Notes: generated by a model from the letters alone, not told the origin. DNA of 64,000 nucleotides from an uncultured Lachnospiraceae bacterium (GCA_902789735.1 CADAOZ010000007.1:43250-107249), one strand, 5' to 3'. Counted from the first letter of the stretch, positions 3,878 through 63,596 are shown. Numbers and translations are program-made.

Positions 3878-3951
3878 TTTTCTGCCTCCTTATGAGAAGA
3901 TGATGCGTCCACAGGGTATACGGGACGCAGCTTGCTTATTTTTTGAGGTTG

Positions 3952-8672: not shown

Positions 8673-8688
8673 CCTTTTCTCCTGCCTG

Positions 8689-9174
8689 TCAACGTGAAGA
8701 TATGATAAAGGAAATAGGCCTGATCTTTTCGATCACCAGCACCCCGTTATAGGTGCCGTCGTCCAGACTGAGCTGCGTTGTGACCGGATACAGGACTTCC
8801 GCCCCCGTCAGCCCTTCCAGGGACAGGGCTTCTTCCGTTAAAACACTGGCCGCAATGACAGACTGGCTGGTATCCACCTCCACCGGAACGGAGTCATCCC
8901 CTACTTCCAGCCTGGTGTCTTCATTGATATCCTCACTGACAACAGCCGTTACGTAGCAGGTGCCTTTTCCTTTTTCCACACTGACCTGCAGATCCGTCTT
9001 TGTGACCAGATGGCCAAAGACCCCCCAGAGGATGATTCCCACCAGCAGGATGATGGCCGCTGCAAGAAAGATCCATATCCCGGGACTTGTGACTCTGATA
9101 TAATCATTGAGCTGCTCCGGCGATTCGATCCGGTCCAGGCTCTTCTTTCTGAAAATACTGTTCTTTTCACTCAT
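8689..9174 (-). CDS. HlyD-family bacteriocin secretion accessory protein, unusually short (161 aa)
   Basis: The N-terminus FRKKSLDRIESPEQLNDYIRVTSPGIWIFLAAAIILLVGIILWGVF matches the conserved start of LcnD/HlyD-like peptide secretion proteins (cytoplasmic tail, signal-anchor helix). Only ~110 aa of periplasmic domain follow and there is no long coiled coil. Confidence 0.7.
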   Translation of the reverse strand: MSEKNSIFRKKSLDRIESPEQLNDYIRVTSPGIWIFLAAAIILLVGIILWGVFGHLVTKTDLQVSVEKGKGTCYVTAVVSEDINEDTRLEVGDDSVPVEVDTSQSVIAASVLTEEALSLEGLTGAEVLYPVTTQLSLDDGTYNGVLVIEKIRPISFIISSR

Positions 9175-9207
9175 AGCTTTTGTCCGTTCTCTGCTCTCCT
9201 GGCGGGA

Positions 9208-9615
9208 TCATGCGTTTTTGGTCATGGTCAGGATGTTCTCACCGCCGGTACGGCTGTATTCCAGCTTATCCATGTTCTTTTTGACCATAAAAATGCCCAG
9301 TCCCCCTATAGGCCTGTCTTCCGCGCCCAGCGTGATGTCCGGATCTGATTTGCCAAGAGGATCATATGGAATCCCCCTGTCCCTGAATACAATGATAAAG
9401 CGTCTGTCCGCGCTGCTGCCGCTGATCTGGATGTCCGCGTGACCGATCCTTCCGGGATAGGCGTATTGGGCAATGTTGACGAAGATTTCTTCTACAGATA
9501 TATCGATCTGCATCTGCGCCTTCATAGGGCAGCCGGCTTCCTCCAGATATGAATCGATGAACATAAGGACCTGCGGCAGATTGTCGACTTTCGCTTCAAT
9601 ATTTAAATTTTTCAT
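9208..9615 (-). CDS. Anti-sigma regulatory factor (GHKL Ser/Thr kinase of the RsbW/SpoIIAB type)
   Basis: 135 aa. N-box-like EEIFVNIAQYA, G1 DRGIPYD, G2 GGLGIFMVKK. The size and motifs are those of partner-switching kinases. Confidence 0.8.
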   Translation of the reverse strand: MKNLNIEAKVDNLPQVLMFIDSYLEEAGCPMKAQMQIDISVEEIFVNIAQYAYPGRIGHADIQISGSSADRRFIIVFRDRGIPYDPLGKSDPDITLGAEDRPIGGLGIFMVKKNMDKLEYSRTGGENILTMTKNA

Positions 9616-9664
9616 GCTCTTATACCCTGTTTAAATACCGGCGATGCTGCGTCCTTCCTGCTCT

Positions 9665-9961
9665 TTACTCGATCGTGAGAATATCACTGAAGCCGGTGAC
9701 TTCGAAAACCTCCATAACAGGGTCACAGACATGGATCAGCTTCATGCTGCCCTGCTTATTCATGACTTTCTGGGCAGAGAGCAGAACTCGAAGGCCTGCG
9801 GAAGAAATATACTCCAGATTCGTAAAGTCCAGGGTCAGATCCGTGATCCCGTTCAGAGAACGGCGGAGTTCTGTCTCGAGAGCCGGCGCTGTCATGGTAT
9901 CCAGCCTGCCTTCTACCTTGATTGTTAATTCTGTTCCGTTCAATGCTTTCCTGATTTCCAT
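9665..9961 (-). CDS. STAS-domain anti-sigma factor antagonist (SpoIIAA/RsbV-like)
   Basis: Trimmed to the ATG at 9961 (MEIRKALNGTELTIKVEGRLDT...), which has a GGAGG RBS 7 nt upstream. The conserved phosphorylatable region is DLTLDFTNLEYISSAGLRVLL. The ORF-track N-terminal extension lacks an RBS. Confidence 0.8.
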   Translation of the reverse strand: MEIRKALNGTELTIKVEGRLDTMTAPALETELRRSLNGITDLTLDFTNLEYISSAGLRVLLSAQKVMNKQGSMKLIHVCDPVMEVFEVTGFSDILTIE

Positions 9962-10289
9962 TTCTATCCTCCAAAAATATTTATGAACATAGTTGAGATA
10001 TCCTGAGATTTTATTATAAACCATACATGCCGTAGTAGCAAACAGGAGCCGGTAAAAAATAAAAGCCTTCCGCCTTCCTGTACGCGTTCTGTTATGTGCC
10101 GTTATCAGATATGCAAAAACCTTTTATCAGATTTAGAACATCCTGAAATCGTTTTTCCGCAACTTTCTGAAGGGTTTTAAAAATTACTGTTGCATCCGGC
10201 AGAATCCGGTGCTATAGTAAATGTAGTTTTGATAACTACATCTTAGCGTTTTCATTATTTTTAACGGCCTGGCACGCCGGAAAGGATGC

Positions 10290-10556
10290 ATGAACATGAC
10301 TGTAAAAGATTTAAAGAAATTCTTCAAAGAGCACCTGGTCCCCGCCAATGTGTACAGCTTTAAAGGCGGCAACCATAAGAACAGGATCTGCATGGGACGT
10401 ACCAAAAAAGGCTGGGAGATCTATTTCAGCGACAAAAAGAAGAAGATCGGCCTGATGCAGTTCGCCAGCGAAAGTGAAGCCTGCATGCGCATGAAGGAGG
10501 AGGTCCTCAAACTCATGGAGCAGGTCTACGGACTGAGCTGGAGAAATTTTGCCTGA
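10290..10556 (+). CDS. Small hypothetical protein (86-88 aa), Lys-rich with 3 Cys. Possible double-glycine-type leader (…VPANVYSFKGG).
   Basis: AAAGGA RBS at 10281-10286 favours the second ATG (10296, MTVKDL). Codon usage is genome-typical. It is followed by a strong terminator. I recognise no family. Confidence 0.5.
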   Translation: MNMTVKDLKKFFKEHLVPANVYSFKGGNHKNRICMGRTKKGWEIYFSDKKKKIGLMQFASESEACMRMKEEVLKLMEQVYGLSWRNFA

Positions 10557-10624
10557 TCCGGCAGGAACGCTCTTTTGTTTACTTCCTATAATTATTATTT
10601 ACTATCCTTCTATTCATCTCTCAG

Positions 10625-10655
10625 AAAACCGCCGCAGGCCCTGCGGCGGTTTTTG
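10625..10655 (+). terminator. Rho-independent terminator after the small ORF
   Basis: AAAACCGCCGCAGG-CC-CTGCGGCGGTTTTT: a perfect GC stem followed by a T run. Confidence 0.75.
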
Positions 10656-10662
10656 ACGCCGC

Positions 10663-10692
10663 AAAAAAGACCGCCACTCCGAAGAGTGGCGG
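10663..10692 (-). terminator. Rho-independent terminator of ppdK
   Basis: On the minus strand: GCCGCCACTC-TTCG-GAGTGGCGG followed by TCTTTTTT, 50 nt after the ppdK stop. Confidence 0.75.
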
Positions 10693-10739
10693 CCTCGTTT
10701 ACGTCAGATCTTGTCAGATCCCGGGGGATCCGTCGCTTC

Positions 10740-13373
10740 TTATGCTTCGCCGTGGGCGATGGCTGCCTGTGCCGCTGCCAGTCTGGCAATCGGTACACGG
10801 AAAGGTGAGCAGGATACATAATCCAGGCCGATCTTGTCGCAGAACTCGATGGAGGAAGGATCTCCGCCGTGCTCGCCGCAGATACCCGCGTGCAGGCTGG
10901 GACGTACCTTCTTGCCCTTTTCGATGGCGATTTCCATCAGCAGGCCTACGCCGGTCTGGTCCAGCTTGGCGAAGGGATCGCCTTCCAGGATCTTGGCGTC
11001 ATAGTAGGCGCCAAGGAACTTGGAGGAATCGTCACGGGAGAAGCCATAGGTCATCTGGGTCAGGTCGTTGGTACCGAAGCAGAAGAACTCAGCCTCTGTC
11101 GCGATGGCGTCCGCTGTCAGAGCCGCGCGGGGGATCTCGATCATGGTACCGACTTCATACTTGAGGTCGGAGCCTGCCGCCTTGATCTCAGCGTCAGCTG
11201 TAGCAACAACGACGTCCTTGACATACTTCAGTTCCTTGACCTCGCCGATCAGGGGGATCATGATCTCGGGAACCAGATCCCAGTCAGGATGCTCTGCCTT
11301 GACGGCGATCGCCGCGCGGATAATGGCAGTGGTCTGCATCTTGGCGATTTCAGGATAGGTAACTGCCAGACGGCATCCGCGGTGGCCCATCATGGGGTTG
11401 AATTCCTTGAGGCCTTCAATGATTGCCTTGATGGCTTCTACACTCTTATCCTGGGCCTTGGCCAGTTTCTCGATGTCAGCTTCCTCAGTGGGAACGAACT
11501 CATGCAGAGGCGGATCCAGGAAACGGATGGTAACGGGATCACCTTCCATGGCCTCAAAGAGACCCTTGAAGTCGCCTTCCTGCAGAGGCTCGATCTTCTC
11601 CAGAGCCGCTTCTCTTTCTTCGATGGTATCGGAGCAGATCATCTCACGGAATGCAGCGATCCTGTCCTCATCGAAGAACATATGCTCTGTACGTACAAGG
11701 CCGATGCCTTCCGCGCCGAGCTCTCTTGCCTTCTTCGCGTCGCGGGGCGTATCCGCGTTGGTGCGGACTTTCAGTCTGCGATACTTGTCTGCCCATCCCA
11801 TGATGCGGCCGAATGTACCGGAGATCTGGGCGTCGACAGTAGGGATGGTGCCGTCATAGACACAGCCTGTCGTGCCGTCGAAGGAGATGATATCGCCTTC
11901 ATGATATACTTTGCCGGCCAGTGTGAACTGCTTGTTGGCTTCATCCATGATGATGTCGCCGCAGCCGGATACGCAGCAGACGCCCATACCGCGGGCAACA
12001 ACTGCAGCGTGGGAGGTCATGCCGCCGCGGACAGTCAGGATACCCTGGGCTGCCTTCATGCCGGTGATGTCCTCAGGAGAGGTCTCCAGACGTACCAGAA
12101 CGACCTTCTCGCCTCTGGCTGCCCATTCCTCAGCGTCTTCCGCTGTGAAAACGATCTTACCGCAGGCTGCGCCGGGAGCTGCGCCCAGAGCCTTGGCGAT
12201 GGGGGTCGCTGCCTTCAGAGCGTTGGCGTCGAATGTAGGATGAAGCAGTGTATCCAGGTTACGGGGATCGATCATGGCGACCGCTTCCTTCTCGGTCCTC
12301 ATGCCTTCGTCAACGAGGTCACAGGCGATCTGCAGAGCGGCCTGCGCGGTCCTCTTGCCGTTACGTGTCTGCAGCATGTACAGTTTGCCGTGCTCTACGG
12401 TGAACTCCATATCCTGCATGTCTCTGTAGTGGTTCTCGAGGATGCTGCATACTTCCTTGAACTGATTGAAAGCTTCAGGGAACTTCTGCTCCATCTCGGT
12501 GATGTGCATGGGAGTACGGACGCCTGCGACAACGTCTTCACCCTGGGCGTTGGTCAGGAACTCACCGAAGAGGCCCTTGGCGCCTGTAGCGGGGTCACGT
12601 GTGAAAGCAACGCCGGTACCGCAGTCATCACCCATGTTGCCGAATGCCATGGACTGGACGTTAACGGCTGTGCCCCAGCTGTAGGGGATATCATTGTCAC
12701 GTCTGTAAACATTGGCACGGGGGTTGTCCCAGGAACGGAAAACAGCCTTGATGGCGCCCATCAGCTGCTCCTTGGGATCGGACGGGAAATCTTCTCCCAG
12801 TTTCGCCTTATATTCAGCCTTGAACTGGTCTGCCAGCTTGTGCAGATCATCCGCGTCCAGCTCAACGTCAAGCTTGACGCCCTTTTCCTCTTTCATCTGG
12901 TCGATCAGGGCCTCAAAATACTTTTTGCCGACTTCCATAACAACGTCGGAATACATCTGGATGAATCTTCTGTAGCAGTCCCATGCCCAGCGGGGATTGC
13001 CGGACTGCTCCGCGATGGTGTTGACAACTGTCTCATTCAGACCCAGGTTCAGGATGGTATCCATCATACCGGGCATGGATGCTCTCGCGCCGGAACGAAC
13101 GGAAACGAGGAGCGGGTTCTTGGCATCGCCGAACTTCTTGCCTGTAATCTCTTCCATCTTGCCGATATACTCGTTGATCTCAGCCATAATGGAAGGATTG
13201 ATCTCACGGCCGTCCTCATAATACTGGGTGCAGGCTTCGGTTGTGATGGTGAAGCCCTGAGGAACCGGGAGACCGATGTTGGTCATCTCTGCCAGGTTAG
13301 CGCCCTTGCCTCCAAGGAGCTCTCTCATGTCTGCGTTGCCTTCGCTGAAAAGGTAACAATACTTTTTGCTCAT
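10740..13373 (-). CDS. ppdK: Pyruvate, phosphate dikinase
   Basis: 877 aa. MSKKYCYLFSEGNADMRELLGGKGANLAEM, the catalytic His region GGMTSHAAVVARGMG, and the PEP-utilising C-terminal TIM domain. GGAGG RBS. Confidence 0.95.
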   Translation of the reverse strand: MSKKYCYLFSEGNADMRELLGGKGANLAEMTNIGLPVPQGFTITTEACTQYYEDGREINPSIMAEINEYIGKMEEITGKKFGDAKNPLLVSVRSGARASMPGMMDTILNLGLNETVVNTIAEQSGNPRWAWDCYRRFIQMYSDVVMEVGKKYFEALIDQMKEEKGVKLDVELDADDLHKLADQFKAEYKAKLGEDFPSDPKEQLMGAIKAVFRSWDNPRANVYRRDNDIPYSWGTAVNVQSMAFGNMGDDCGTGVAFTRDPATGAKGLFGEFLTNAQGEDVVAGVRTPMHITEMEQKFPEAFNQFKEVCSILENHYRDMQDMEFTVEHGKLYMLQTRNGKRTAQAALQIACDLVDEGMRTEKEAVAMIDPRNLDTLLHPTFDANALKAATPIAKALGAAPGAACGKIVFTAEDAEEWAARGEKVVLVRLETSPEDITGMKAAQGILTVRGGMTSHAAVVARGMGVCCVSGCGDIIMDEANKQFTLAGKVYHEGDIISFDGTTGCVYDGTIPTVDAQISGTFGRIMGWADKYRRLKVRTNADTPRDAKKARELGAEGIGLVRTEHMFFDEDRIAAFREMICSDTIEEREAALEKIEPLQEGDFKGLFEAMEGDPVTIRFLDPPLHEFVPTEEADIEKLAKAQDKSVEAIKAIIEGLKEFNPMMGHRGCRLAVTYPEIAKMQTTAIIRAAIAVKAEHPDWDLVPEIMIPLIGEVKELKYVKDVVVATADAEIKAAGSDLKYEVGTMIEIPRAALTADAIATEAEFFCFGTNDLTQMTYGFSRDDSSKFLGAYYDAKILEGDPFAKLDQTGVGLLMEIAIEKGKKVRPSLHAGICGEHGGDPSSIEFCDKIGLDYVSCSPFRVPIARLAAAQAAIAHGEA

Positions 13374-13408
13374 TCTTTCCTCCTTTTATATACCCCTGAA
13401 ACTTGATA

Positions 13409-14278
13409 TTACAGGTTGTTAACATTGTTCTTCGCCGCCGGCTCAAAGCCGTCAAAAATAAAGGCGTCGTATTGACCCGCCAGAGCCTTCATCTCCTCCT
13501 GACTGTGGACAGTCCAGCAGGCACTGTGTCCCTTGAAATACCTGCGGTAAAAACGAAGGGAAAGATTCCTGTCGAATTTACAGTTAAAGGATATGAAATC
13601 CGGCCTGCAGAGAAAGTTGGTGATCAGGAACTGGATCATCAGCAGCAGGGGCCGGTACTCCATTCTGCGGAACTCAGGCGTTTTGGTAAAACGGTCTGAA
13701 AGCTGTCCCCTGACGACATCACTGCGGTGCTTTCTGAACCAGTAGAGCACGAGGGGATTGAAAGCCTCTATGCAGTAGGGGCCCTTGTATTCCAGCAGCA
13801 TGGCGTTGACCTTCTCACAGATCGTCATGTCCGGGTCTTCTGATTTGATCTCCACCAGAAGGGGAACCCTGCCGTCCACCAGATCCAGGAACTCACGGAA
13901 GGTCGGGATCTTCTCCTCTGTATCCAGCAGGCGGAACCGGCGAAGCTCCTTCAGGGTATAATCCTCCGGAGCGCCCGGCACGCCGCACATCCGCTGCAGG
14001 GTAAAATCATGAAAAACGACAGGGATCTTATCCTTTGTCAGATGAATGTCAAGTTCAATCCCGTAACCGGCTTCCACCGCTTTGCGGAATGCCTTCATGG
14101 AGTTTTCAGGCGTGCCGGTATTATTGTCGAACAGGCCCCTGTGGGCAAAGAGGCTGCCGCGCAGGATACTGTAATCAGGTTTTCCGACCATCCTTGGCAT
14201 GATCGACAGCAGATACAGAAGAAAAAGACAGGGAGGCGCGCCTGCGAACATCACTATTTTTTTCATCAGTACTTTCAT
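13409..14278 (-). CDS. Glycerophosphodiester phosphodiesterase family protein, membrane-anchored
   Basis: 289 aa. An N-terminal hydrophobic anchor precedes the GDPD motifs HRG...ENS and GYGIELDIHLTKDKIPVVFHD. Confidence 0.75.
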   Translation of the reverse strand: MKVLMKKIVMFAGAPPCLFLLYLLSIMPRMVGKPDYSILRGSLFAHRGLFDNNTGTPENSMKAFRKAVEAGYGIELDIHLTKDKIPVVFHDFTLQRMCGVPGAPEDYTLKELRRFRLLDTEEKIPTFREFLDLVDGRVPLLVEIKSEDPDMTICEKVNAMLLEYKGPYCIEAFNPLVLYWFRKHRSDVVRGQLSDRFTKTPEFRRMEYRPLLLMIQFLITNFLCRPDFISFNCKFDRNLSLRFYRRYFKGHSACWTVHSQEEMKALAGQYDAFIFDGFEPAAKNNVNNL

Positions 14279-14631
14279 CTTCCTTTCCGGAAAGCTGTCC
14301 CGCTGCCGCGGTCATGACCGTCCGGTCTGTCCGGGCACTTCATCAAACCGGAAAATCTGATCACTATGTCCTGAACAATAACGGACAGACCCCTTTGGAT
14401 GCATATGATCCGGTCTGCCGGCAACGAGTTAAGATCGCGTGCAGTTTCTCTCGAAAACGGCCGCACCCGATCCGGTCTTGTTAATTAATGCCGCCCGATA
14501 ACAGCGGACTATATTTTAAACAGTTTAACACTTATATCATCAAAAAGCCACATGGGTCATACATTTTTCATAAATCTTTATGGAAATTTACCGAAAAACG
14601 CGCGTGCGGCCATCCGATAAAAGCCGCAGGA

Positions 14632-50908: not shown

Positions 50909-51661
50909 CTAATAATCCGGACTGCCGTAAGCCAGCCGTTCATACAGGGCCGCTTCTGTCATGCTGCGGTAGGGTCTGACATAAAAAACGCCCAGAAGGC
51001 CTGCCGTTACGCCGGAGAGGATTTCCCAGCCCAGGAATGACAGATCCAGCAAAAAGGCTTTCCACTTCTGCCCTTCCATCATCAGGGTACTGCGCCGCAG
51101 GACTTCCTCCGGCATAAGATCCGGATGCTCAGCCAGTATATAAGGGACCATCTTATATTTGTAATAGCGGACCAGTCCCGGAACCAGGAACAGCAGGCCC
51201 CACAAAAAGGTATACAGATCCCGCAGGAACATGGTCGTGACGATATTTTTATATCCGTGGTCAAAAGCGAAAGCCGCCTCTGCCACCCTGGCTTCCCGGT
51301 TGAGATTCATCAGCATAAAACGCTGGGCGCCCACCCGCAGCGGGTTGAGCAGGCAGGCCTTTACGATGATCACAAGCAGAAGAGCCAGCATACCCACCGT
51401 AAGGCCGATCAGACCGGTCAGGAGCCAGAAAACAGGATTCCCCGCCATCTGTTCCCCCGTCACATGACCGCCGTTATAGGAAAAAGGGCCCAGATGAAAA
51501 GAGGCAGTGAAGGTATCTTCCGCCTCTTCTGATCCGGACCCGCCGCGGGAAAACGCGCCGATACCGGTCAGCATGATGAGCATGCTGACCAGTACGGTTT
51601 TCCAGTAATTCGCTTTAAATGCTGTTTTTCCTTTTTCTTTCAGTTCCCTGCGCGTCCACAT
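50909..51661 (-). CDS. DUF975-like polytopic membrane protein (paralog 2)
   Basis: Trimmed to MWTRRELKEKGKTAFKANYW. 4-5 TM helices. 35-40% identical to the upstream paralog in the same architecture. Confidence 0.6.
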   Translation of the reverse strand: MWTRRELKEKGKTAFKANYWKTVLVSMLIMLTGIGAFSRGGSGSEEAEDTFTASFHLGPFSYNGGHVTGEQMAGNPVFWLLTGLIGLTVGMLALLLVIIVKACLLNPLRVGAQRFMLMNLNREARVAEAAFAFDHGYKNIVTTMFLRDLYTFLWGLLFLVPGLVRYYKYKMVPYILAEHPDLMPEEVLRRSTLMMEGQKWKAFLLDLSFLGWEILSGVTAGLLGVFYVRPYRSMTEAALYERLAYGSPDY

Positions 51662-51662
51662 G

Positions 51663-52385
51663 TCAGGCATTCTCCATAATCAGCTTCCGATAAAGGGCTG
51701 CTCTTGTCATATCGTGATAGGGATTGGCGTAAAGCACACCGACGATTCCCATTGTGACCGCACTTAAAATGTACCAGCCGATAAATGAAAGGTCAAGAAT
51801 GAAGGCATTCCACTTGCTGCCCTGCATCAGGCGCCTGCTTTCCGCGAAAGCTTCCTGACGGGTGATCGACGGATCATCGGCCAGCAGGTAGGGGATCATC
51901 AGATATTCATAATATTTGACAATGCCCGGAATCACCAGCAGCATGGTCCATAACAGGGTAAACAGGTCTCTGCAGAAAAGGGTCTTGACTCTTTCCAGAT
52001 AACTGTCGCCGAATCCGCCGCCGATACTGGATACCTCCGCCGGCCGGGTCAGATTGATCAGGAAGAACCTTTTGCATCCCAGATCCAGGGGATTCAGGAT
52101 GAAGGCCCTGACCATCAGGCCAATGATTAAGGCCGCGAAGGCGATGGCAGATACCAGCAGACCGATCAGGAAGGTCTCCGGCGTGGCCTGCTGCCCGTAT
52201 TGACCGGCAGCTTCTCCTGCTTCCTGCATGGCACCGGCACCGGCGCCCGAGGAACCGCCGGCCCCGACGGAGCTGCCGCCCGCGCCGGCGATGACCATGG
52301 CGATCAGGGAGACCAGGACGGTCCTCCAGTAATTTGCCTTAAAAGTGTTTCTGCCTGTTTCTTTCAGTTCCGCTCTTGTCCACAT
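51663..52385 (-). CDS. DUF975-like polytopic membrane protein (paralog 1) with a Gly/Ala/Ser-rich loop
   Basis: Trimmed to MWTRAELKETGRNTFKANYW, which has a GGAGGA RBS. Low-complexity loop GAGGSSVGAGGSSGAGAGA. Confidence 0.6.
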   Translation of the reverse strand: MWTRAELKETGRNTFKANYWRTVLVSLIAMVIAGAGGSSVGAGGSSGAGAGAMQEAGEAAGQYGQQATPETFLIGLLVSAIAFAALIIGLMVRAFILNPLDLGCKRFFLINLTRPAEVSSIGGGFGDSYLERVKTLFCRDLFTLLWTMLLVIPGIVKYYEYLMIPYLLADDPSITRQEAFAESRRLMQGSKWNAFILDLSFIGWYILSAVTMGIVGVLYANPYHDMTRAALYRKLIMENA

Positions 52386-52582
52386 AGTTATATCCTCCAT
52401 GGAATAAATCCTTTTTTCTGATATGTTTTGTTTTTCTGAGTTCCGTTTGTTTTGATGTGACTGATTTACTGCCTTGTTTCTGTTTACATCCTGAGGATAA
52501 CGCGCGGACCTTTCCGGGAAACACCAAAAACCTTAACCTTTCCTTAAACAGAACAAAAAAGAAACAAATCAAAAAAGAAACA

Positions 52583-52698: not shown

Positions 52699-54975
52699 TT
52701 AAGCGAACAGATCATAAATCTCGTCGACGCTCATCTTCAGGATATCTTCCACTGCTTCTTCCGATTCGCAGGCACCGGCGATCTTGCCCAGGGTCTCCAC
52801 ATGGCTGTCGCCTGCGGACGCGACCGCGATGACCAGTTTGACGGTCTCGCCTTCGCCCCAGTCGATGCCGTCGGGGTAGGTAAAGATGGCCAGTCCGGAG
52901 TTGCGGATCTCACCGATGACACTTTCAATACCGTGCGGGATGGCAAGGGAGTTGCCGATGGCCGTATTGAAAACATCTTCCTTGGCGATCATGCCGTCTA
53001 CATACTTCTCGGTTACATAGCCTGTCTCCACCAGGGCATTGCCGATGGCGCGGATGGCTTCTTCCTTTGTCACGGAAGGCAGGTTGGTGCGGATGTTCTT
53101 CTTGATCAGGACACCGCCGTGATAGTCGTCGCTCTCTCCTGTCAGGATATTGCTGTTGACTCTGGCCTGGAGGAATTCTTCGGTGATCTGCTTATATTCG
53201 GGAGCGTCCATGATGTTATCGATGGCGATGATTCTGGAATCGGGCATGCAGTCCGCGATCTGTACCGCGAATTCCTTGGGACAGACGATGTATCTGCTGT
53301 CGGCAGGGATCTCCACGATCTTGCAGTGGGCGACCCGGATATTGGCCAGGCCGTTGGCTTCCAGCATGTTCTGCAGGACCACAGCGCCCATGGCGGAGGA
53401 ACCCATACCTGCGTCACATACGAACATGATCTTGTCTATGGTCCTGAGGTCTACCATTCTGCCGCCGGCCGTTCTTCTTCTGGCCAGGCTTTCTTCCGGC
53501 TGCTGGGGCTGCGGAGCAGGCGCAGGGGCTGCCTTGCGGTTTCCTGCCAGCTCTACTTTGATCAGGGCTTCTGTCAGCTCGTCATATTCAGGGGCTTTCA
53601 TGTAGTTGCTGATGGAAAGATGCTGCTTGCCGGGCTGGGCCGCTTTGGCGGTACCGGTCAGCTTCTCATGGGTGATGATCAGGTCTACATCATCCGGAAT
53701 TCTGGCAATGGCGTAGTTAGTGACTTCGATGGGCAGGCCTGCTGCCTTGATCTTCTTCTTCAGGGCCTGGGCGCTCATGGCCGAGGAGCCCATGCCGGCG
53801 TCACAGCATACCGCGATCTTTCTTACATTGGTCAGATCCAGACCGGCTACGCCCGCGTCGATATCATTGACGACGTCATTCCTGGCTGCGGAGGAACCCA
53901 TGGCTTCTGCGGGGATGACGGATTCACCCATGGTCATGTCGCCGCCGCGTCTGACCTGGATCCGTACAAAAATACTGTTCAGGGCCAGGGAGACCGCCGC
54001 TGAGAGGACGACTGCCAGCAGGACCGCGATCATGCTGTCCTTGGGCGTCAGGGCGATGACAGAGAAGATACTGCCGGGAGAAGGCGTCGCGACAGTACCC
54101 GCGTCAAACAGGGTCAGGGTGCCTGTACCCACGATGCCGGCGGCGATCATGCCGAGGATGGTCACGGGGTTGGACAGTACGTAGGGGAAATATACTTCGT
54201 GGATGCCGCCGAAGAAGTGGATGATGATCATACCGGGCGCGGCTTCCTTCATTTCACCCTTGCCGAAGAACCAGTAAGCCAGGAGCAGTCCCAGGCCGGG
54301 GCCGGGGTTGGGGACCAGCATGAAGAGGGCGGAATGGCCGAACTGTTTGACCTGGTCATAACCGATGGGTCCGAAAATACCGTGGTCAAGCGCGTTGTTG
54401 AGGAAAAGCACCTTGGCGGGCTCTACGAAAATGTGGGAAAGGGGCAGGATGTTGTGGTCCAGCATCCAGTTGACGCCGCCGGTCAGGGCTGTGGATACAG
54501 CATGCATGAGGGGACCGAACACCAGGTAGGCAAAGCAGCACAGGATGGCGCCGATGATACCCAGGGAGAAGTTGTTGACGATCATCTCAAAACCGCCCGG
54601 CACCTTGCCGTCGATGAATTTATCAAATTTGCTGATGACCAGACCGGAGAAAGGTCCCAGGATCATGGCGGCCAGGAACATGGGGGTTCCTTCCACCGCT
54701 ACGATGGCGCCCAGTGTTACGAAAGCGCCAAGGACAGCGCCGCGCTGGCCGCCGACCATCTTACCGCCGGTATAGGCGATCAGGATGGGCAGCAGGTTGT
54801 TCAGTATGGGTGAGATCAGTTTGGCCAGCTCTTCATTGGGGGTCCAGCCCGTGGAAAGGAAGAAGGCGGTGATCAGGCCAAAGCCGATAAAAGCGCCGAT
54901 ATTGGGGATGACCATACCGGCCAGAAACGCGCCGAATTTCTGCAGTTTCTGCGCAACTGTAGTCTTTTCTTTCAT
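52699..54975 (-). CDS. mtlA: PTS mannitol-family transporter EIIC-B-B-A (MtlA-like with a duplicated EIIB domain)
   Basis: Trimmed to MKEKTTVAQKL, which has a GGAGG RBS. The EIIC closely parallels E. coli MtlA (NIGAFIGFGLITAFF, FVEPAKVLFLNNALDHGIF, IIHFFGGIHEVYFPYVL). There are two EIIB motifs (IAVCCDAGMGSSAMSA and IMFVCDAGMGSSAMGA) and a C-terminal EIIA with AIPHG. Confidence 0.9.
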   Translation of the reverse strand: MKEKTTVAQKLQKFGAFLAGMVIPNIGAFIGFGLITAFFLSTGWTPNEELAKLISPILNNLLPILIAYTGGKMVGGQRGAVLGAFVTLGAIVAVEGTPMFLAAMILGPFSGLVISKFDKFIDGKVPGGFEMIVNNFSLGIIGAILCCFAYLVFGPLMHAVSTALTGGVNWMLDHNILPLSHIFVEPAKVLFLNNALDHGIFGPIGYDQVKQFGHSALFMLVPNPGPGLGLLLAYWFFGKGEMKEAAPGMIIIHFFGGIHEVYFPYVLSNPVTILGMIAAGIVGTGTLTLFDAGTVATPSPGSIFSVIALTPKDSMIAVLLAVVLSAAVSLALNSIFVRIQVRRGGDMTMGESVIPAEAMGSSAARNDVVNDIDAGVAGLDLTNVRKIAVCCDAGMGSSAMSAQALKKKIKAAGLPIEVTNYAIARIPDDVDLIITHEKLTGTAKAAQPGKQHLSISNYMKAPEYDELTEALIKVELAGNRKAAPAPAPQPQQPEESLARRRTAGGRMVDLRTIDKIMFVCDAGMGSSAMGAVVLQNMLEANGLANIRVAHCKIVEIPADSRYIVCPKEFAVQIADCMPDSRIIAIDNIMDAPEYKQITEEFLQARVNSNILTGESDDYHGGVLIKKNIRTNLPSVTKEEAIRAIGNALVETGYVTEKYVDGMIAKEDVFNTAIGNSLAIPHGIESVIGEIRNSGLAIFTYPDGIDWGEGETVKLVIAVASAGDSHVETLGKIAGACESEEAVEDILKMSVDEIYDLFA

Positions 54976-55258
54976 GAATACCTCCATATGATCTGTGTGG
55001 ATCTATATACTCCTATATCTCTCGACAAAACCTATTTCTTAATTTTTCTTAAGTTTTTCAAGGTAAAAACAGGGAGCCCAGGCGGATCATATCCGACGAG
55101 GGCTCCCGTTGTCTCCATCCCGGTACCTCTCAGAATGTATATGCGTTTTTTCCTTTTCCCATACCTGACCGGGATTCCGCTGATGCGGCAAGAAGACTCT
55201 TCTTCATCTGCCGGCCGCAGACACTGCCGCGGCGGCGGGTTTATACCGGGAGCCGGGC

Positions 55259-56305
55259 TCAGCCTTCCACTTTCATTGTGAACTGCTCCCAGGGGATATT
55301 GACTTCGGCGCCTTCATTGATGATCGCGTCCACATGCATGAGGAGCGGATAATCCTTCAGAGAAACGACGCCTCTTTCAGCCAGTCTTCTGACGGCTCTG
55401 GCCGTACGGGTCGCGATGACGATGGATTCCAGTGTCACGCCCTGGAGCTCATCCATGGCCTCCTGGAAAGTCAGGCCTCTGCCCAGCAGGGTGCCGATCT
55501 TGCGGGTACGTCCGCCGAATACAGTGACATAGAGGTCACCGGCGCCGTGAATGATATTCTCGGGGCCGCCGCCGATCAGCGCCAGCAGCTGCATCATTTC
55601 CTTGACCCCCTGGCCGAAAAGGGCCGCCTGGGAGTTGTAATGGACCGCGCCGATCTTACCATCCTTTTTCTCAGCCATACCGACCGCCAGGGAAACGCCC
55701 AGGGCATAGGCATTCTTCATGGCGACGGCGCACTCGACACCGGTCACGTCCGTGGACAGGCTGATGTGATAATAGTCTGTGGCCAGAAGGGATTTGATAT
55801 ATTCCAGCGTCTTCATGTCTTTGCCGCAGAAGGCCACATGGCTGTTGTCATGGTCTGCCAGCTCATAGCTGGTGCAGGGACCGCCGATGGCGTTGAAGTT
55901 GATATTTTTACCTGCGGGCTGACGCTGGGCGAAAATGGTCGGATAGGGGACCAGGGTGCCGTCTTCCAGATCGACCATACCCTTGGTGACAGTCAGAAGC
56001 GGGACAGTCTCCGGAAGGACCGGCAGGATCTCATCACAGAACCAGTCCAGGCCGAAGCTGGATACGCCGCCCAGAATCAGGTCCGCGCCCTGCAGAGCCT
56101 CTTCCAGCTCTTCAATCTGATAATATTTGATGCCGTCATGGAGGGTCCGCTTCAGTGTGATATGAAAGTTGTCCTCTCTGAGATGATCAATGATCTCCCT
56201 GTCCAGAGGCGATCCGACCAGGCGGACTTCATGTCCGTTCTCAAAAGCCGGAAATGTGATTGCTGAGTTCATCTGACCTGCGCATACAAAAGTGATAACT
56301 GCCAT
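55259..56305 (-). CDS. GpsA-family NAD(P)-dependent dehydrogenase-like protein with a degenerate dinucleotide-binding fingerprint, cotranscribed with the PTS
   Basis: Trimmed to MAVITFVCAGQMNSA, which has an AAAGGA RBS. It resembles glycerol-3-P dehydrogenase (NGHEVRLVG; ...GDLYVTVFGGRTRKIGTLLGRGLTFQEAMDEL is similar to the GpsA C-terminus). GxGxxG is replaced by AGQMNS. It is not MtlD-like. Confidence 0.6.
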   Translation of the reverse strand: MAVITFVCAGQMNSAITFPAFENGHEVRLVGSPLDREIIDHLREDNFHITLKRTLHDGIKYYQIEELEEALQGADLILGGVSSFGLDWFCDEILPVLPETVPLLTVTKGMVDLEDGTLVPYPTIFAQRQPAGKNINFNAIGGPCTSYELADHDNSHVAFCGKDMKTLEYIKSLLATDYYHISLSTDVTGVECAVAMKNAYALGVSLAVGMAEKKDGKIGAVHYNSQAALFGQGVKEMMQLLALIGGGPENIIHGAGDLYVTVFGGRTRKIGTLLGRGLTFQEAMDELQGVTLESIVIATRTARAVRRLAERGVVSLKDYPLLMHVDAIINEGAEVNIPWEQFTMKVEG

Positions 56306-56826
56306 TTCATTTTTCCTTTCCGCATCGGACTCTGCCGCTGCTGCCGTCGACTGCAGGGGGCCCCTCCTGTGTCTTCGCTGCTGTGTTTTCTGTTCTTGTC
56401 TTGTACTATTTTTACTATATTTTTTCGTATCTGTCAAATCAGAAAACCGCGTAAATATGCGGTTTTCCGGCATTATTTAATTAATCACAATAATTGATTA
56501 ACACCCTCCGGAATCGGCCGGTAAGCGGGAATCAGCTCCTGTCTTCCGGGGTATTCCGCCGCAAACCGCGGTAAATCAGGATTTCTGCCGCCGGCCCCCG
56601 GATCCGGCTTGCGCAAGTTGTTGATCAATGCTATGATGATTAATAATCAATTAAAATTCTGATTAGTAATCGGTCGTTAATCAAAATAAATCAAAACGGT
56701 CAAAAGGTGAAAACAGGCGGCAGAACAATCCGGAAATCGTTCCGGAAAGTTGCTCCAAAGAAAGGCTGGAAGTCCCGGCAGACGTCCGCAGACAGCGGAA
56801 CCGCCGGGCCGGACAGGAGGAAAAAG

Positions 56827-57906
56827 ATGGGTAAAAGAAATAAGGTCACCACAAGAGATCTGGCGGAATATACGGGTATCTCCCAGTCCGCCGTTTCCAT
56901 GATCCTGAGCGGCAGGCCGGGCGTATCCTTCACGGAAGATACCGTCCGTAAAGTGAAAGAAGCCGCGGCGGAGCTGGGCTATCAGAAGCCCCGCAAAAAA
57001 GAGGCGCCCAAAGAAAAGGTCCTCAGGAACGTGATCGTAGTCCTGGGGCCTTCCCTGTCCAACGGCTATTATTCCATGATGGTCCATTCCATCACCAAAC
57101 ATGCCGCGGAGTATGGTTATCAGGTCCTGACCGCCATTACTTTCCGGTCCGCGGAAGCGGAGGACCGGTATTTCGAGCTCCTGAACCGGGCGGAGCTGGC
57201 CGGGATCATCGCCCTGTATCCTCTCAGCAACACCTCTCCCGCCAACCGCCTGGCCAAAGAAATCCCGGTCATCTCCATTGGTGAGAAACAGGAAGGGATC
57301 CGCTACGATTCTGTGGAACTGGACAGCCGCAAGACCGGCTTTCTGGTGGGGGAATACCTGCTGTCTCTGGGCCACCGGAAAGTCCTCTACCTGTCGCCTC
57401 CGGTCCTGAAAAAGGAAATCAGCCGGATCAACCGCCTGGAGGGGGTCCGGGACGCCTTCCGGGAGCAGGGTCTGGATCCGTCCATGGTCCGCCTGGTAAG
57501 TCCCACCAGCACCGCCTACGCCCTGTATCCGGCGGACGAAGCGGAATACAGGAACGGATATGACCTGACTGTCAAAACCATTCAGGACAAAACGGAGGCA
57601 ACTGCCCTGATCGGCCATAATGATATGTCCGCCCTGGGCATCCTGGCAGCCCTGACCGATCTAAAATGCCGGGTCCCCAGAGACTATTCGGTGGTAGGCT
57701 TTGACAACATCCTGCACGCCTCCATGCCCCAGATCGGCCTGACGACCGTGGAGCATTCCTCTGTCCTGAAAGGACAGGCAGCCGTGGAGATGATCTACCG
57801 CAAGAACCAGCGCAGGGAAAAGCAGACCTCCGGCAAATATACCATGCGGGCGGAATATGAACCTCACCTGATCGTCCGCGGCAGCAGCGGCCCGGCCCCG
57901 GTCTGA
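56827..57906 (+). CDS. LacI-family transcriptional regulator
   Basis: Trimmed to MGKRNKVTTRDLAEYTGISQSAVSMIL, which has a GGAGG RBS. HTH plus a periplasmic-binding-protein-like sugar-binding domain. Confidence 0.9.
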   Translation: MGKRNKVTTRDLAEYTGISQSAVSMILSGRPGVSFTEDTVRKVKEAAAELGYQKPRKKEAPKEKVLRNVIVVLGPSLSNGYYSMMVHSITKHAAEYGYQVLTAITFRSAEAEDRYFELLNRAELAGIIALYPLSNTSPANRLAKEIPVISIGEKQEGIRYDSVELDSRKTGFLVGEYLLSLGHRKVLYLSPPVLKKEISRINRLEGVRDAFREQGLDPSMVRLVSPTSTAYALYPADEAEYRNGYDLTVKTIQDKTEATALIGHNDMSALGILAALTDLKCRVPRDYSVVGFDNILHASMPQIGLTTVEHSSVLKGQAAVEMIYRKNQRREKQTSGKYTMRAEYEPHLIVRGSSGPAPV

Positions 57907-59699: not shown

Positions 59700-60260
59700 T
59701 TACTCTTCGTCCAGCAGATCCACGACTTCATCAGCCTTTTTCTCGAAGGCTTCCTTTGCGGCGCTGACAGCTTCCGCGGCGTCCGCGGCAGCCTCTTCCG
59801 CTGCTTCTTTCGCCTCAGCGGCAGCCTCTTCCACCGCTTCCTTCGTGTCGGCGGCCTTGTCTTCCGCAGCCTCAGCAGCTTCTTCTGCAGCTGCTTTCGC
59901 GGCCCCGGCAGCATCCTCCGCAGCCTCTTTTACTTCTTCCGCAGCCTCCAGAGCTTCTTCCGCGGTCTCCTCCTCGGGCTCTTCCTCGGGATCGAACTCA
60001 TCTTCTTCGTCCCTGTCCAGGTAATCCATTACCTTTTCCGCGGAATCCGCAATGAAGCTGACGATGGTCGTGTAGGTCCTTGTCGCCTTGTTAATGAAGT
60101 TCTCTTTTTCTTCTGTTTTTGCTTCCGCTTCGGGAGCTTCATCATCTATATCCGCCTCCGGGATCTCGGACGCGGCGCTGCGCTCCATAAAATAATAAGC
60201 GGTCGCTGCCGCGACACCGATTGCCGTACATCCGATAAATAACTTAGTCAGTTTACCCAT
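59700..60260 (-). CDS. Small acidic Ala/Glu-rich protein with an N-terminal membrane anchor
   Basis: 186 aa. An N-terminal hydrophobic helix, then (EEAAxAAE)n low-complexity region, pI about 3-4. Confidence 0.5.
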   Translation of the reverse strand: MGKLTKLFIGCTAIGVAAATAYYFMERSAASEIPEADIDDEAPEAEAKTEEKENFINKATRTYTTIVSFIADSAEKVMDYLDRDEEDEFDPEEEPEEETAEEALEAAEEVKEAAEDAAGAAKAAAEEAAEAAEDKAADTKEAVEEAAAEAKEAAEEAAADAAEAVSAAKEAFEKKADEVVDLLDEE

Positions 60261-60483
60261 TTTTTTCCTCCATTCTTATATACAGTATTGTAACTGCACT
60301 AAAATCCATAATACCTTATTTCTTTGAAAATGAAAAGATGCAGACTGCCTACATTCTCAATCTTTTCCCGGTTTTTGTCATGTTCTTTGACGTATTTTCC
60401 ACCGGAGGACACTCCCTGCGGCCGGGAGCAAATCCTCACGTCTTTTATTGAAAAGTCAGTCGCCGCATGCTATATTGATTGGT

Positions 60484-61083
60484 ATGAATGAGAAATTTTT
60501 TGATCTGAAAAAATCCAAACAGGACCGCATGATCAACGGTTCTCTCAAAATATTTACGGAAAACGGCTACCGCCACGCCAGCACGGACGAGATCGTCAGT
60601 GAGGCCGGCATCAGCAAGGGCCTGCTCTTCCACTATTTCATCAATAAGATCGGCCTCTTCTCTTTTCTGTATGAATATTCCACCCGTTTCGTCCTGCTGG
60701 AACTCCATGAGGAATTCCGGCGTCCGGAAACGGATTATTTTGAGCTGCAGAAAAGGCTGACGGACGCGGAAGCCAGTGTGATCCGTCTCTACCCCCATAT
60801 GCTGCTCTTCCTGGAAAAAGCGGACCGGGAGATCATCCCGGAAGTGGCGGAAGCAGTACGGGCCTGCCCGGCCCATGTCAGCGACCGTTATGAAGCCCTG
60901 TTCGAAGAAGTCAATTATCCGGCTTTCCTGTCCGCCGCGGACGCCCGCCGGATCACCGATATGCTGCAGATGACCCGGTCCGGAATCCTGCAGCGGTCCA
61001 TTCCCGGCGCCCTGCCGGACCCGGACGCCTATCGGGAGGAGGTCAGGGCCTGCCTGAATACCCTCCGCCGTATGACTCTCTGA
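60484..61083 (+). CDS. TetR/AcrR family transcriptional regulator (apparently leaderless mRNA)
   Basis: Trimmed to MNEKFFDLKKSKQDRMINGSLKIFTENGYRHASTDEIVSEAGISKGLLFHYF. TTGAAA-17-TATATT lies 7 nt upstream of the ATG and there is no SD. Confidence 0.8.
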   Translation: MNEKFFDLKKSKQDRMINGSLKIFTENGYRHASTDEIVSEAGISKGLLFHYFINKIGLFSFLYEYSTRFVLLELHEEFRRPETDYFELQKRLTDAEASVIRLYPHMLLFLEKADREIIPEVAEAVRACPAHVSDRYEALFEEVNYPAFLSAADARRITDMLQMTRSGILQRSIPGALPDPDAYREEVRACLNTLRRMTL

Positions 61084-61194
61084 CATCTGCCTGTCCCGGA
61101 GTCTTTCATCCGGGCATCTCATTTGACCGGCACTGCAGGAAACGGTTCTCTTTCGAGAACCGTTTCTTTTTATGCTTTATTTTATTCTGTATTT

Positions 61195-62901
61195 TTATTT
61201 CTTAGGCAGCTTGAAAGAACTCTTGAGGCCTACGATCCTGTTGAAAACAGGGGCGCCTTCTCTGGAATCCTTGTAATCTACGCAGAAATAGCCGTTGCGG
61301 ACGAACTGGAAACGCTCGAAGGGCTTCACGTCCTGCAGAGCCGGCTCTGCCCATGCCCGGCATACCGTCAGGGAATGGGGGTTGAGGTTGAGGCTGCCGT
61401 CCGCGTTGTAAACGCCCTTTTCCTCATCGATGATGTTCTCATACAGACGGGCTTCCACGGGGACTGCCTGCCCGGCATAGACCCAGTGGATGGTACCCTT
61501 GACCTTACGGCCGGTAAAACCGCTGCCGCTCTTCGTTTCAGGATCATATGTGGCATGAACGGCGGTGATATTGCCGTCCTCATCCTTGTCAAAACCGGTG
61601 CACCTGACAAAATAGCCGTACATCAGGCGGACTTCATTGCCGGGGAACAGTCTGTAGTATTTCCGGGGCGGCACTTCCATAAAGTCATTGCGCTCAATCC
61701 AGAGCTCTCTGCCGAAGGGGATCTTACGCTTGCCCAGCTCGGGATTCTCCAGATTGTTGTCGGCATCCAGATACTCGACCTGGTCCTCGGGATAATTGTC
61801 GATGATCAGTTTGATGGGATCCAGAACTGCCAGCATACGCTTGCAGCCGATCTTCAGATCGTCGCGGATGCAGTATTCCAGCATGGCGTAATCCACAGAG
61901 GAGTTGCTCTTGGAGACACCGCACAGGTCGACGAACTTGCGGATGGACTCGGGCGTGAAGCCTCTGCGGCGCAGGCCGGAAATAGAGACCAGCCTGGGAT
62001 CATCCCAGCCGTCCACGATCCCGTCCAGGACCAGCTTCTTGATATAACGCTTGCCGGTAACGACATTGGTCAGGAACATCTTGGCAAATTCGATCTGTCT
62101 GGGGGGATGGGGATACTCCGCCTCCCGGACGACCCAGTCATAAAGAGGCCTGTGATCTTCGAATTCCAGGGTACAGATGGAATGGGTAATGCCTTCGATG
62201 GCGTCCTCGATCGGATGGGCGAAATCGTACATGGGATAGATGCACCACTTGTCGCCCGTATTGTGATGGGTCATATGAGCCACGCGGTAGATGATCGGAT
62301 CACGCATATTGATATTGCCGCTGGACATATCGATCCTGGCCCGCAGGGTGCGCTCACCGTCCGCGAACTCACCGTTCTTCATGCGTTCGAACAGGTCCAG
62401 GTTCTCCTCGACGGGACGGTCCCGGTTGGGATCGTTCCGGCCCGGCTCGGTCAGGGTGCCGCGGTATTCACGCATCTGCTCCGCCGTCAGCTCAGAGACA
62501 TAGGCCTTACCCTTTTTGATCAGTTTGACGGCGACCTCATACATTTCCTGGAAATAGTCGGAGGCGAAAAAGATCCTGTCTTCATAATCCGCGCCCAGCC
62601 ATGTCACATCCTCACGGATGGACTCTACGAATTCCGTATCCTCCTTGGTGGGATTGGTATCATCATAACGCAGATTGAATTTACCGCCGTATTCCTGGGC
62701 CAGTCCGTAGTTGAGCAGTATGCTCTTGGCATGGCCTATATGCAGATAGCCATTGGGTTCGGGAGGGAATCTGGTATGTACCGTGGTGTAAACGCCTTCC
62801 GCCAGGTCCTTATCGATCTCCTGCTCGATAAAGTTCCTGCTTTCTCTGGTCTCTTCTTCAGCGGCCGCGTCCGCGCCGTTCCTGATCTCTTCGTTGCTCA
62901 T
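61195..62901 (-). CDS. glnS: Glutamine--tRNA ligase
   Basis: Trimmed to [11 protein letters not shown], which has an AGGAGA RBS. Class I HIGH motif [11 protein letters not shown], and MSK motif LSKR-type region. Overall GlnRS architecture including the anticodon-binding beta-barrels. Confidence 0.9.
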
Positions 62902-63086
62902 GAAATGCTGTCTCCTTCTACTTATTACTGCCACTGGCCGGTGCGGTCCGGAAAACGGACACCGCAGCGCGGCCGGTCCGGACAGGGCATGCCCGCGGAC
63001 CGGGCGTGGATTATTGTATCATTATTTTCCGCTCCTGTCACCGTCCGGCGGATATTCCGGACCGGACCAGCCGCGCGAAGGGACGC

Positions 63087-63596
63087 TCAGTCCCGGAAGA
63101 TCTTGCGGGGCATATAGGTACGCAGGCTCCGGAAGATCTCCTCCGCGTACTCACCTTCCAGATCCAGCACCAGAATCTTGTCCGGGAAGCAGACACGGTA
63201 ACGGATTCCGGGACGGGCCGGCTCCGTATGGCTGGAATAGTCGGTCACCGGCAGGTTCCTGTTGTTATAACTGTCCAGATGATGGGATTTTTCCGGCGCC
63301 ATGACCTCCATCTCATTCAGATCATAGACTGCCACTTCCTTCCGTTTGGATTTATTGATGATCTTTGCCACCCGCAGTTCCCTGTCCACATAGGCGTATT
63401 CATAGTCGATATTGAGATCCTGGCTCAGATACCAGGCAAGGGCGGCGAACAGGACCGTACCGATCAGGGAAAACGCGCCGAAAACCAGCAGCCCCAGGGC
63501 ACACACCACAGCCAGGGCAGCCGCCACGATCTGCAGGATCTTCTTCAGGGGATTATTCGCTCTTTTCACAACAATTTCAAGACAGCCAGTATCCAT
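63087..63596 (-). CDS. Hypothetical membrane protein
   Basis: Trimmed to MDTGCLEIVVKR, which has an AAGGAGG RBS. Two TM helices. No family recognised. Confidence 0.5.
   Translation of the reverse strand: MDTGCLEIVVKRANNPLKKILQIVAAALAVVCALGLLVFGAFSLIGTVLFAALAWYLSQDLNIDYEYAYVDRELRVAKIINKSKRKEVAVYDLNEMEVMAPEKSHHLDSYNNRNLPVTDYSSHTEPARPGIRYRVCFPDKILVLDLEGEYAEEIFRSLRTYMPRKIFRD

Follow-up and report, generated by a model that had tools for sequence, protein, structure and literature searches.

Mannitol-family permeases of the bacterial phosphotransferase system (PTS; TC 4.A.2) have been described as E. coli MtlA, in which the enzyme II domains are joined as EIICBA, and as the MtlA of Firmicutes, an EIICB protein accompanied by a separate EIIA, MtlF. 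Common to them are the GIHE motif, the cysteine of the CDAGMGSSAM motif and the AIPHG motif. The textbook example of a PTS permease with a duplicated EIIB is E. coli FruA (IIB'-IIB-IIC). Here we describe a locus at positions 52699-57906 of a 64,000-nucleotide (nt) stretch of DNA, hereafter the window, from an uncultured rumen Lachnospiraceae bacterium (GCA_902789735.1 CADAOZ010000007.1:43250-107249). It consists of three intact genes, encoding a PTS permease and a dehydrogenase, termed GPSL, on the minus strand, and a divergent LacI-type regulator on the plus strand. The same trio is present with 98-100% identity on contig ONRU01000052 of the metagenome-assembled genome (MAG) RUG578. By its sequence the permease is a mannitol-family PTS protein, with two consecutive EIIB domains, and we tentatively read the locus, with a confidence just short of an even chance, as a mannitol-type PTS that is co-located and co-regulated with an accessory oxidoreductase for glycerol-3-phosphate (G3P) and dihydroxyacetone phosphate (DHAP), the two having independent functions. 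A literature search for a GpsA-like enzyme with a mannitol PTS, for a double-EIIB MtlA and for the glycerol genes of Anaerostipes returned nothing relevant. The permease gene is organized as follows (lengths in amino acids, aa).

52699-54987, minus strand: mannitol-family PTS permease, EIIC-EIIB-EIIB-EIIA, 762 aa; alternative start at 54975 (758 aa), often annotated by gene callers (open reading frame (ORF), Pfam, NCBIfam, motifs)
53956-54948, minus strand: EIIC(Mtl) domain, residues 14-344, GIHE at 261-264 (TIGR00851 match over 14-344)
53575-53820, minus strand: first EIIB, residues 390-471, Cys395 codon at 53803-53805 (Pfam, domain comparison, motif)
53494-53526, minus strand: linker PAPAPQPQQPE, rich in Pro, Ala and Gln, residues 488-498 (comparison with split EIIBA genes)
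53170-53439, minus strand: second EIIB, residues about 517-606, Cys524 codon at 53416-53418 (domain comparison, motif)
52705-53103, minus strand: EIIA (PTS_EIIA_2), residues 629-761, His685 codon (AIPHG) at 52933-52935 (Pfam, motif)

Pfam assigns a PTS_EIIC domain, two PTS_IIB stretches and a PTS_EIIA_2 domain to the permease, which reaches 725 bits against a cut-off of 589 on NCBIfam PRK15083 (NF011663, 'PTS mannitol transporter IICBA') and remains below the cut-off on TIGR00851 mtlA (428 versus 468 bits), as does the mtlD-linked MtlA of Anaerostipes. Of the sequence motifs, CDAGMGSSAM is present in two copies (residues 395-404 and 524-533), and both GIHE of EIIC(Mtl) and AIPHG of EIIA (682-686) are kept. 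Aligned with each other, the EIIB domains show 38% identity (E = 2e-20). The duplicated EIIB with a cysteine in each copy and the PAPAPQPQQPE linker between them, which had been noticed in an earlier, sequence-only reading of the locus, is therefore confirmed. Thus, the sequence features of MtlA (EIIC type, EIIB Cys, EIIA His) are all present, but the operon partners (mtlD, MtlR/MtlF) are missing. The EIIC domain is 72-83% identical to that of the mtlD-linked Anaerostipes MtlA, from which only nine clade-specific positions differ, all of them conservatively and with GIHE kept, and a search for specificity-changing substitutions in the EIIC of the double-EIIB clade gave nothing else. Such a small number of conservative differences argues that the double-EIIB and the mtlD-linked EIIC have the same substrate, and judged by EIIC homology this is most likely mannitol. 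On the earlier proposal that the substrate is not mannitol the evidence is divided: the nearly unchanged EIIC speaks against it, and the consistent absence of mtlD, discussed below, against a mannitol pathway of the usual kind.

An assembly artefact was considered as the origin of the C-B-B-A fusion and ruled out, since the 90% cluster contains 191 members, many of them full-length copies of 758 or 762 aa on independent contigs, and since the same fusion is seen in L004 (labels of this type denote the loci of our survey). At the 50% cluster level no C-B-B-A-sized protein is found among the 150 best representatives, most of which have the length of an EIICBA (about 600-645 aa) or of an EIICB (about 440-490 aa).

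In sister species this system is divided between two genes, one for an EIICB of about 480 aa and one for an EIIBA of 328-335 aa, and the counterparts of Cys395, Cys524 and His685 are conserved in seven split relatives. The split EIIBA starts with a hydrophobic helix that is followed by a Lys/Glu/Arg-rich segment, which argues that it forms a membrane-anchored B-A unit; we know of no previous description of such a stand-alone EIIBA. A predicted transmembrane helix, MITTVIVILTVIVVGGIIILDHF, opens the EIIBA of L011 (8733-9728), L018 (8896-9882), L022 (2932-3927) and L084 (7001-7990). In the window, the PAPAPQPQQPE linker stands where the split genes have the stop codon, the transmembrane helix and the charged segment. 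Furthermore, the unit formed by the second EIIB and EIIA shares 66% identity with the BA portion of an EIICBA from a canonical mtlR-mtlA-mtlD operon. Given this likeness and the split genes of the sister species, the double-EIIB system looks like an EIICB-type MtlA that has taken up a complete B-A unit, the cytoplasmic half of an MtlA of the EIICBA type. The stand-alone EIIBA does not qualify as a rare architecture in itself, because EIIBA proteins at a greater distance (33-53% identity) are partnered by EIIC genes that have no B domain and do not form double-B systems, so that the special feature is the combination of CB and BA alone. In L093 (7234-9179), a 271-aa EIIC call overlaps with a 392-aa IIB-IIA call within an mtlR-mtlA-mtlD operon, and the two are probably a single frameshifted or mis-called EIICBA gene.

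Upstream of the permease gene lies the gene for the dehydrogenase.

55259-56305, minus strand: GPSL, GpsA-family NAD(P)-type dehydrogenase, 348 aa, stop codon at 55259-55261 (Pfam, alignments, AlphaFold2 (AF2) model)
56261-56284, minus strand: degenerate dinucleotide fingerprint CAGQMNSA, GPSL residues 8-15 (alignment, motif)

Both GpsA domains are recognized by Pfam in GPSL, the N-terminal one weakly (NAD_Gly3P_dh_N, 35 bits) and the C-terminal one with 80 bits (NAD_Gly3P_dh_C), whereas Mannitol_dh domains (PF01232/PF08125) are not detected by Pfam. The closest solved relative is 1txg (139 bits, or 168 bits with the family profile), the G3P dehydrogenase of Archaeoglobus fulgidus, which is reported to prefer NADP; the canonical bacterial and eukaryotic enzymes reach 40-60 bits. 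The AF2 model (pLDDT 80.6) retains the G3P dehydrogenase fold, including the β1-loop-αA start of the Rossmann domain, and its top Foldseek matches in the PDB are all G3P dehydrogenases, with TM scores of 0.72-0.81 (0.81 for 1txg). Residues K108, K197/N198, D257, T261 and R266/R268 of GPSL correspond to K120, K204/N205, D260, T264 and R269/R271 of human GPD1 (hGPD1), as well as to K125, K210, D263, T267 and R274 of the Leishmania enzyme, and are invariant throughout the family, while the position of N270 in hGPD1 is occupied by Thr267 (RT instead of RN). Based on these similarities, the most likely reaction of GPSL is the interconversion of sn-glycerol-3-phosphate and DHAP, with NAD(P)(H) as the cofactor.

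The nucleotide-binding fingerprint of GPSL departs from GxGxxG/A, with C-A-G-Q-M-N in the window, and the degenerate glycine pattern reported by the sequence-only reading is real. Across 82 loci the fingerprint reads CAGQMNSA in 68, CAGQMASA in 10 and GAGQMASA in four, the last being the deepest branches, in which G-A-G-Q-M-A is an ordinary GxGxxA variant. Judged from the alignments, GPSL thus forms a large Lachnospiraceae branch within the GpsA family, which is highly conserved and has the hallmark [C/G]AGQM[N/A]SA, a lineage trait and not a defect; a search gave 7,707 database matches at E <= 1e-5 and a GTDB scan 515 species loci, both of which may include canonical GpsA relatives. The idea that GPSL is degenerate or artefactual, through a mis-called start, a frameshift or decay into a pseudo-enzyme, could appeal to the absence of two of the three canonical glycines and to the weak N-terminal Pfam score. 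The start at ATG 56305 agrees, however, with the N-termini of hundreds of homologues that share the motif, and no GxGxxG is encoded in the 56 codons by which the ORF extends upstream, which rules out a wrong start or a frameshift as the source of the unusual fingerprint. A pseudo-enzyme, as had been suggested, is likewise excluded, because CAGQMNSA is the majority form across hundreds of species, the alignment columns of 16 diverse members are on average 77% identical, and the residues that contact G3P or DHAP are all kept in a protein with an intact Rossmann start. We therefore regard degeneracy as hardly credible.

The genomic context of GPSL was surveyed in these 82 loci. Its constant neighbor is an orthologue of the LacI-type regulator (61 of the 82 loci), and most LacI-GPSL modules have no PTS nearby. 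In about 22-24 loci a GlpA-like flavoprotein, a pyridine-nucleotide-disulfide oxidoreductase and a DUF1667 protein are found near GPSL, a trio that matches the Thermococcus-type G3P dehydrogenase-NOX-MOX (bioRxiv 10.1101/2024.02.29.582781). In loci of the Anaerostipes type, GPSL is placed between this GlpTk/NOX/DUF1667 trio and an equivalog-level glycerol kinase, GlpK, which in the Anaerostipes hadrus-type loci follows immediately 3' of GPSL, and a classical mannitol operon (EIIA, EIICB, MtlD-like, MtlR-like) lies beyond LacI. Further recurrent neighbors are a split transketolase and, chiefly in the deepest branches, L-ribulokinase with an AraM-like gene. The deepest GPSL sequences (GAGQMASA), which include those of Bacillaceae MAGs, adjoin an equivalog-level AraB and an AraM-like homologue of glycerol-1-phosphate dehydrogenase (L076, L080, L082 and L083, around 8000-14500). 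In Dorea-type loci (L057, L061, L065 and L069, about 7800-8650), a HAD phosphatase of the beta-phosphoglucomutase/hexitol-phosphatase type is located just past LacI, and together with the dehydrogenase such a phosphatase would convert a ketose phosphate into a free polyol, either glycerol or mannitol.

Between PTS-linked and glycerol-linked loci, GPSL proteins share 88-91% identity and are intermixed in the tree, and paralogues from one genome share 95%, which argues that a single function is to be expected in all contexts. A sub-functionalised form of GPSL in PTS-linked loci was not seen, as the tree follows the species, and across 1.5 Mb of locus DNA a search for paralogues or distant relatives of GPSL retrieved orthologues only. 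Some genomes contain two copies with 95% identity (L011 and L012 on contig CACZFF010000029; L072 and L007 in MAG RUG375), one of them in a LacI/PTS operon and the other behind three small genes that have no NCBIfam match, without LacI. The likely control by a repressor, the catabolic contexts and the presence of two copies in some genomes suggest an accessory rather than a housekeeping role for GPSL.

The spacers on both sides of GPSL and the regulator contribute the following features.

55065-55107, minus strand: terminator-like hairpin GGGAGCCC...GGGCTCCC, followed by TGTTTTT (folding of the 271-nt GPSL-PTS spacer)
56408-56437, minus strand: promoter-like site 5' of GPSL, TTGACA, 18 nt, AAAAAT (sequence pattern)
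56482-56500, strand not assigned: operator-like everted pair TAATCA-N7-TGATTA(ATTAAA), about 45 nt upstream of the -35 hexamer (half-site scan)
56637-56672, strand not assigned: candidate LacI operators, palindromes TGATTAATAATCA (56637-56649) and TGATTAGTAATCG (56660-56672) (motif enrichment)
56827-57906, plus strand: LacI/GalR-family regulator, 359 aa, divergent from GPSL (Pfam, NCBIfam)

The regulator matches Peripla_BP_3 (82 bits) and Peripla_BP_1 (64 bits) in Pfam, whereas the LacI helix-turn-helix domain, with 24 bits, is just under the cut-off of 27; many NCBIfam models of the LacI family are matched as well, all below their equivalog cut-offs. Palindromes of the type TGATTA-N-TAATCA are located in the LacI-GPSL spacer and represent candidate LacI operators. 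Of 56 orthologous spacers, 45 contain the motif, which is about 9-fold denser there than in the remaining non-coding DNA at the same A+T content (2.5 versus 0.28 per kb), although it is atypical for the LacI family, with an odd spacing and no central CG. In the window, all six TGATTA half-sites lie within this spacer and none in the GPSL-PTS spacer, so that the expected control of the permease by LacI is not supported here, while the presence of a LacI-type regulator without MtlR is. The 271-nt GPSL-PTS spacer has a stable fold (z = -3.5), with a GC-rich hairpin and a T-run at the end of the spacer; it gives no Rfam match to a known RNA element at E <= 1, and cre sites for CcpA are not found near either promoter. 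In L084, L086 and L072, an operator/promoter cassette homologous to the one of GPSL in the window precedes IICB, which argues that in these sister species the PTS belongs to the LacI regulon. In cassettes headed by a SorC-type regulator, repeated GAAAATATTTTC palindromes are present 5' of IICB (L022, 1150-1460; L075, 4200-4500) and are probably the operators of that regulator.

In the reading that we prefer, the locus would comprise two units. In the first, the LacI-type repressor would bind to the TGATTA-N-TAATCA-type sites in the shared spacer and control GPSL, which would not act on the PTS product but join the triose-phosphate and glycerol-phosphate pools, either in a catabolic role or as an NAD(P)H valve during the use of reduced substrates. 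In the second, beyond the terminator-like hairpin, phosphate would be passed from HPr to His685 of EIIA, then to the cysteine of one of the EIIB domains and finally to a polyol, most likely mannitol. Both units would be part of a recurrent Lachnospiraceae gene set for polyols and glycerol phosphate, together with the GlpTk-type G3P dehydrogenase with NOX and DUF1667, GlpK/GlpF and the split transketolase.

The contexts of the double-EIIB PTS, of which 15 loci were compared, show that the pairing of a GpsA-like gene with an MtlA-like permease recurs in related species. The window and L004 share the order LacI / GPSL-hairpin-CBBA, L011 and L072 have LacI / IICB-IIBA-GPSL-transketolase-GlpA complex, and L084 has LacI / GPSL-GlpA complex / IICB-IIBA-transketolase. 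In L085 the same PTS is accompanied by GlpK-GlpF, which replace LacI-GPSL, with no GPSL within 7 kb, and the string GlpTk-NOX-DUF1667 / IICB-IIBA-transketolase is common to L084, L085 and L095. When L084 and L085 are compared over positions 1-5000, the EIIBA is identical and the string of GlpA complex, PTS and transketolase is the same, with LacI-GPSL upstream in one and GlpK-GlpF in the other; this difference looks like a strain-level module swap. A minimal cassette of a SorC-type regulator / IICB-IIBA-GPSL occurs in unrelated surroundings in at least six species (L018, L022, L075, L094, L096 and L097). MtlD queries gave no match in the 64-kb window, in which neither mtlR nor a second GpsA-like gene was found either, and in a search that covered the locus DNA, mtlD was found in none of the 15 double-EIIB loci, compared with 13 of 14 single-EIIB relatives.

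Some of these observations weigh against independent functions of the PTS and GPSL. As the sole enzyme of the SorC cassettes, GPSL displays the classic signature of a dehydrogenase that acts on the PTS product, and mtlD, which nearly always accompanies the single-EIIB relatives, is missing. GPSL also falls below every NCBIfam GpsA cut-off (best NF000942, 114 versus 257 bits) and has family-specific invariant motifs (LKRTL, ELADHD, and RT instead of RN). The intact G3P site and the mannitol-like EIIC are in conflict with the minimal regulator-PTS-GPSL cassettes and the absence of mtlD.

GPSL could instead have taken the place of a lost MtlD, to which it is not homologous, such that the PTS produces mannitol-1-phosphate and GPSL, perhaps with a relaxed chain-length specificity, oxidises it to fructose-6-phosphate. 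This would fit the minimal cassettes, with L011 and L072 as their LacI-headed counterparts, the distribution of mtlD, and an EIIC that is essentially that of the mtlD-linked relatives. On stereochemical grounds, the HOCH2-CHOH end of mannitol-1-phosphate that is oxidised by MtlD would share its configuration with C2 of sn-glycerol-3-phosphate, whereas oxidation adjacent to the phosphate would need the opposite configuration. However, the phosphodianion site of GPSL (GGRTRK, T261, D257, K108) is set for a phosphate two carbons away from the carbonyl, and in fructose-6-phosphate the distance is four. In addition, the PTS occurs without GPSL in L085, most LacI-GPSL modules occur without a PTS, and the glycerol operons that contain GPSL of about 90% identity adjoin a locus with an mtlD of its own. 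Hence, of the earlier statement that the dehydrogenase stands 'instead of mtlD', the absence of mtlD nearby is upheld and the replacement is probably overstated; we consider such a replacement rather unlikely.

The neighbors of the PTS point in another direction as well, since the enzymes next to it are all G3P dehydrogenases, of two unrelated types, or transketolase (L084/L085/L095, L011/L072 and the SorC cassettes). Accordingly, the double-EIIB PTS might have left mannitol catabolism to phosphorylate glycerol or a small polyol with a G3P-like end, and the product would be oxidised by GPSL, by the GlpTk-type flavoenzyme complex or by both. The exchange of LacI-GPSL for GlpK-GlpF around an identical PTS, the LacI operator/promoter cassette before IICB in three sister loci and the intact G3P site of GPSL are consistent with this. 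Against it, the EIIC has no radical clade-specific change and the permease passes the mannitol IICBA model, and by analogy to mannitol-1-phosphate the product would be sn-glycerol-1-phosphate, which is not the enantiomer used by enzymes of the GpsA type. In Anaerostipes the same synteny is found together with mtlD, so that the adjacency of glp genes may be inherited rather than functional, and it also counts against a glycerol-type substrate that we know of no glycerol PTS. We therefore judge this possibility to be quite improbable; the remaining weight falls on other polyols.

Behind the annotations 'PTS mannitol transporter' and 'glycerol-3-phosphate dehydrogenase' stand two uncharacterised lineages of Lachnospiraceae from the gut and rumen. 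One, a PTS of the mannitol family whose two EIIB domains both look functional, is never accompanied by mtlD in the loci examined; the other is a GpsA paralogue of very high abundance that has a non-canonical cofactor fingerprint and is probably controlled by a sugar-type repressor. Since sugar alcohols as well as glycerol rank among the main substrates of the rumen and gut, a decision between a new mannitol route, a PTS leading into glycerol phosphate and a redox valve would correct the metabolic reconstructions of hundreds of species. The locus is also a natural test case for the role of a second EIIB and for the flexibility of the GxGxxG rule. If glycerol or a similar polyol were the substrate, this would be the first PTS that feeds glycerol-phosphate metabolism directly, and the CAGQMN fingerprint could belong to the adaptation; nothing about the locus is categorically new unless either this or the replacement of MtlD by GPSL holds.

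Directly 3' of the PTS gene, the window contains tandem DUF975 membrane-protein paralogues (50909-51670 and 51663-52400, minus strand), and the same pair is present in L004. Elsewhere in the window, a 186-aa protein (59700-60260, minus strand) has an N-terminal hydrophobic helix and a long, acidic low-complexity tail rich in Ala and Glu, with no Pfam match, and a 664-aa ORF (61123-63117, plus strand), also with no Pfam match, adjoins a gene of the TetR family (60448-61083).

Compared with the MtlA systems of E. coli and Firmicutes, with which the GIHE, CDAGMGSSAM and AIPHG motifs are shared, the window and its relatives differ in having two complete EIIB domains, arranged either as C-B-B-A or as CB with a membrane-anchored BA. 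They also lack adjacent mtlD, mtlR and mtlF, and have G3P dehydrogenase-type genes and a LacI- or SorC-type regulator as neighbors. A second EIIB-type domain is shared with FruA, which provides a loose precedent, but FruA belongs to the Fru family and has a different domain order. Unlike in FruA, both EIIB domains keep the phosphorylatable cysteine here, and the second copy is accompanied by an EIIA of its own.

On the side of the dehydrogenase, the substrate and catalytic residues of GPSL are identical to those of 1txg, GpsA and GPD1, and the position of Q295 in hGPD1 is occupied by Val in both 1txg and GPSL. GPSL differs in the fingerprint (CAGQMN versus GAGAMG in 1txg), in RT in place of the canonical RN, in a four-residue insertion before HYNSQ, in its probable control by a sugar-type repressor, in its catabolic contexts and in its scores below the GpsA cut-offs. 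In the erythritol pathway of Brucella, a kinase (EryA) is followed by a G3P dehydrogenase homologue (EryB) that acts on the polyol phosphate, which is a precedent for the oxidation of a longer polyol phosphate next to the phosphate group by an enzyme of a G3P dehydrogenase family. However, EryB is FAD-dependent and of the GlpD type, whereas GPSL is of the GpsA type, and the isomerases that follow in erythritol breakdown are absent here. AraM of B. subtilis, a glycerol-1-phosphate dehydrogenase, is encoded in the arabinose operon without being a step of the arabinose pathway. With GPSL it has in common that a glycerol-phosphate dehydrogenase resides in a sugar operon, and the deep-branching GPSL genes indeed adjoin AraB and AraM-like genes; yet AraM has an unrelated fold, that of the Fe-ADH family, and the opposite stereochemistry.

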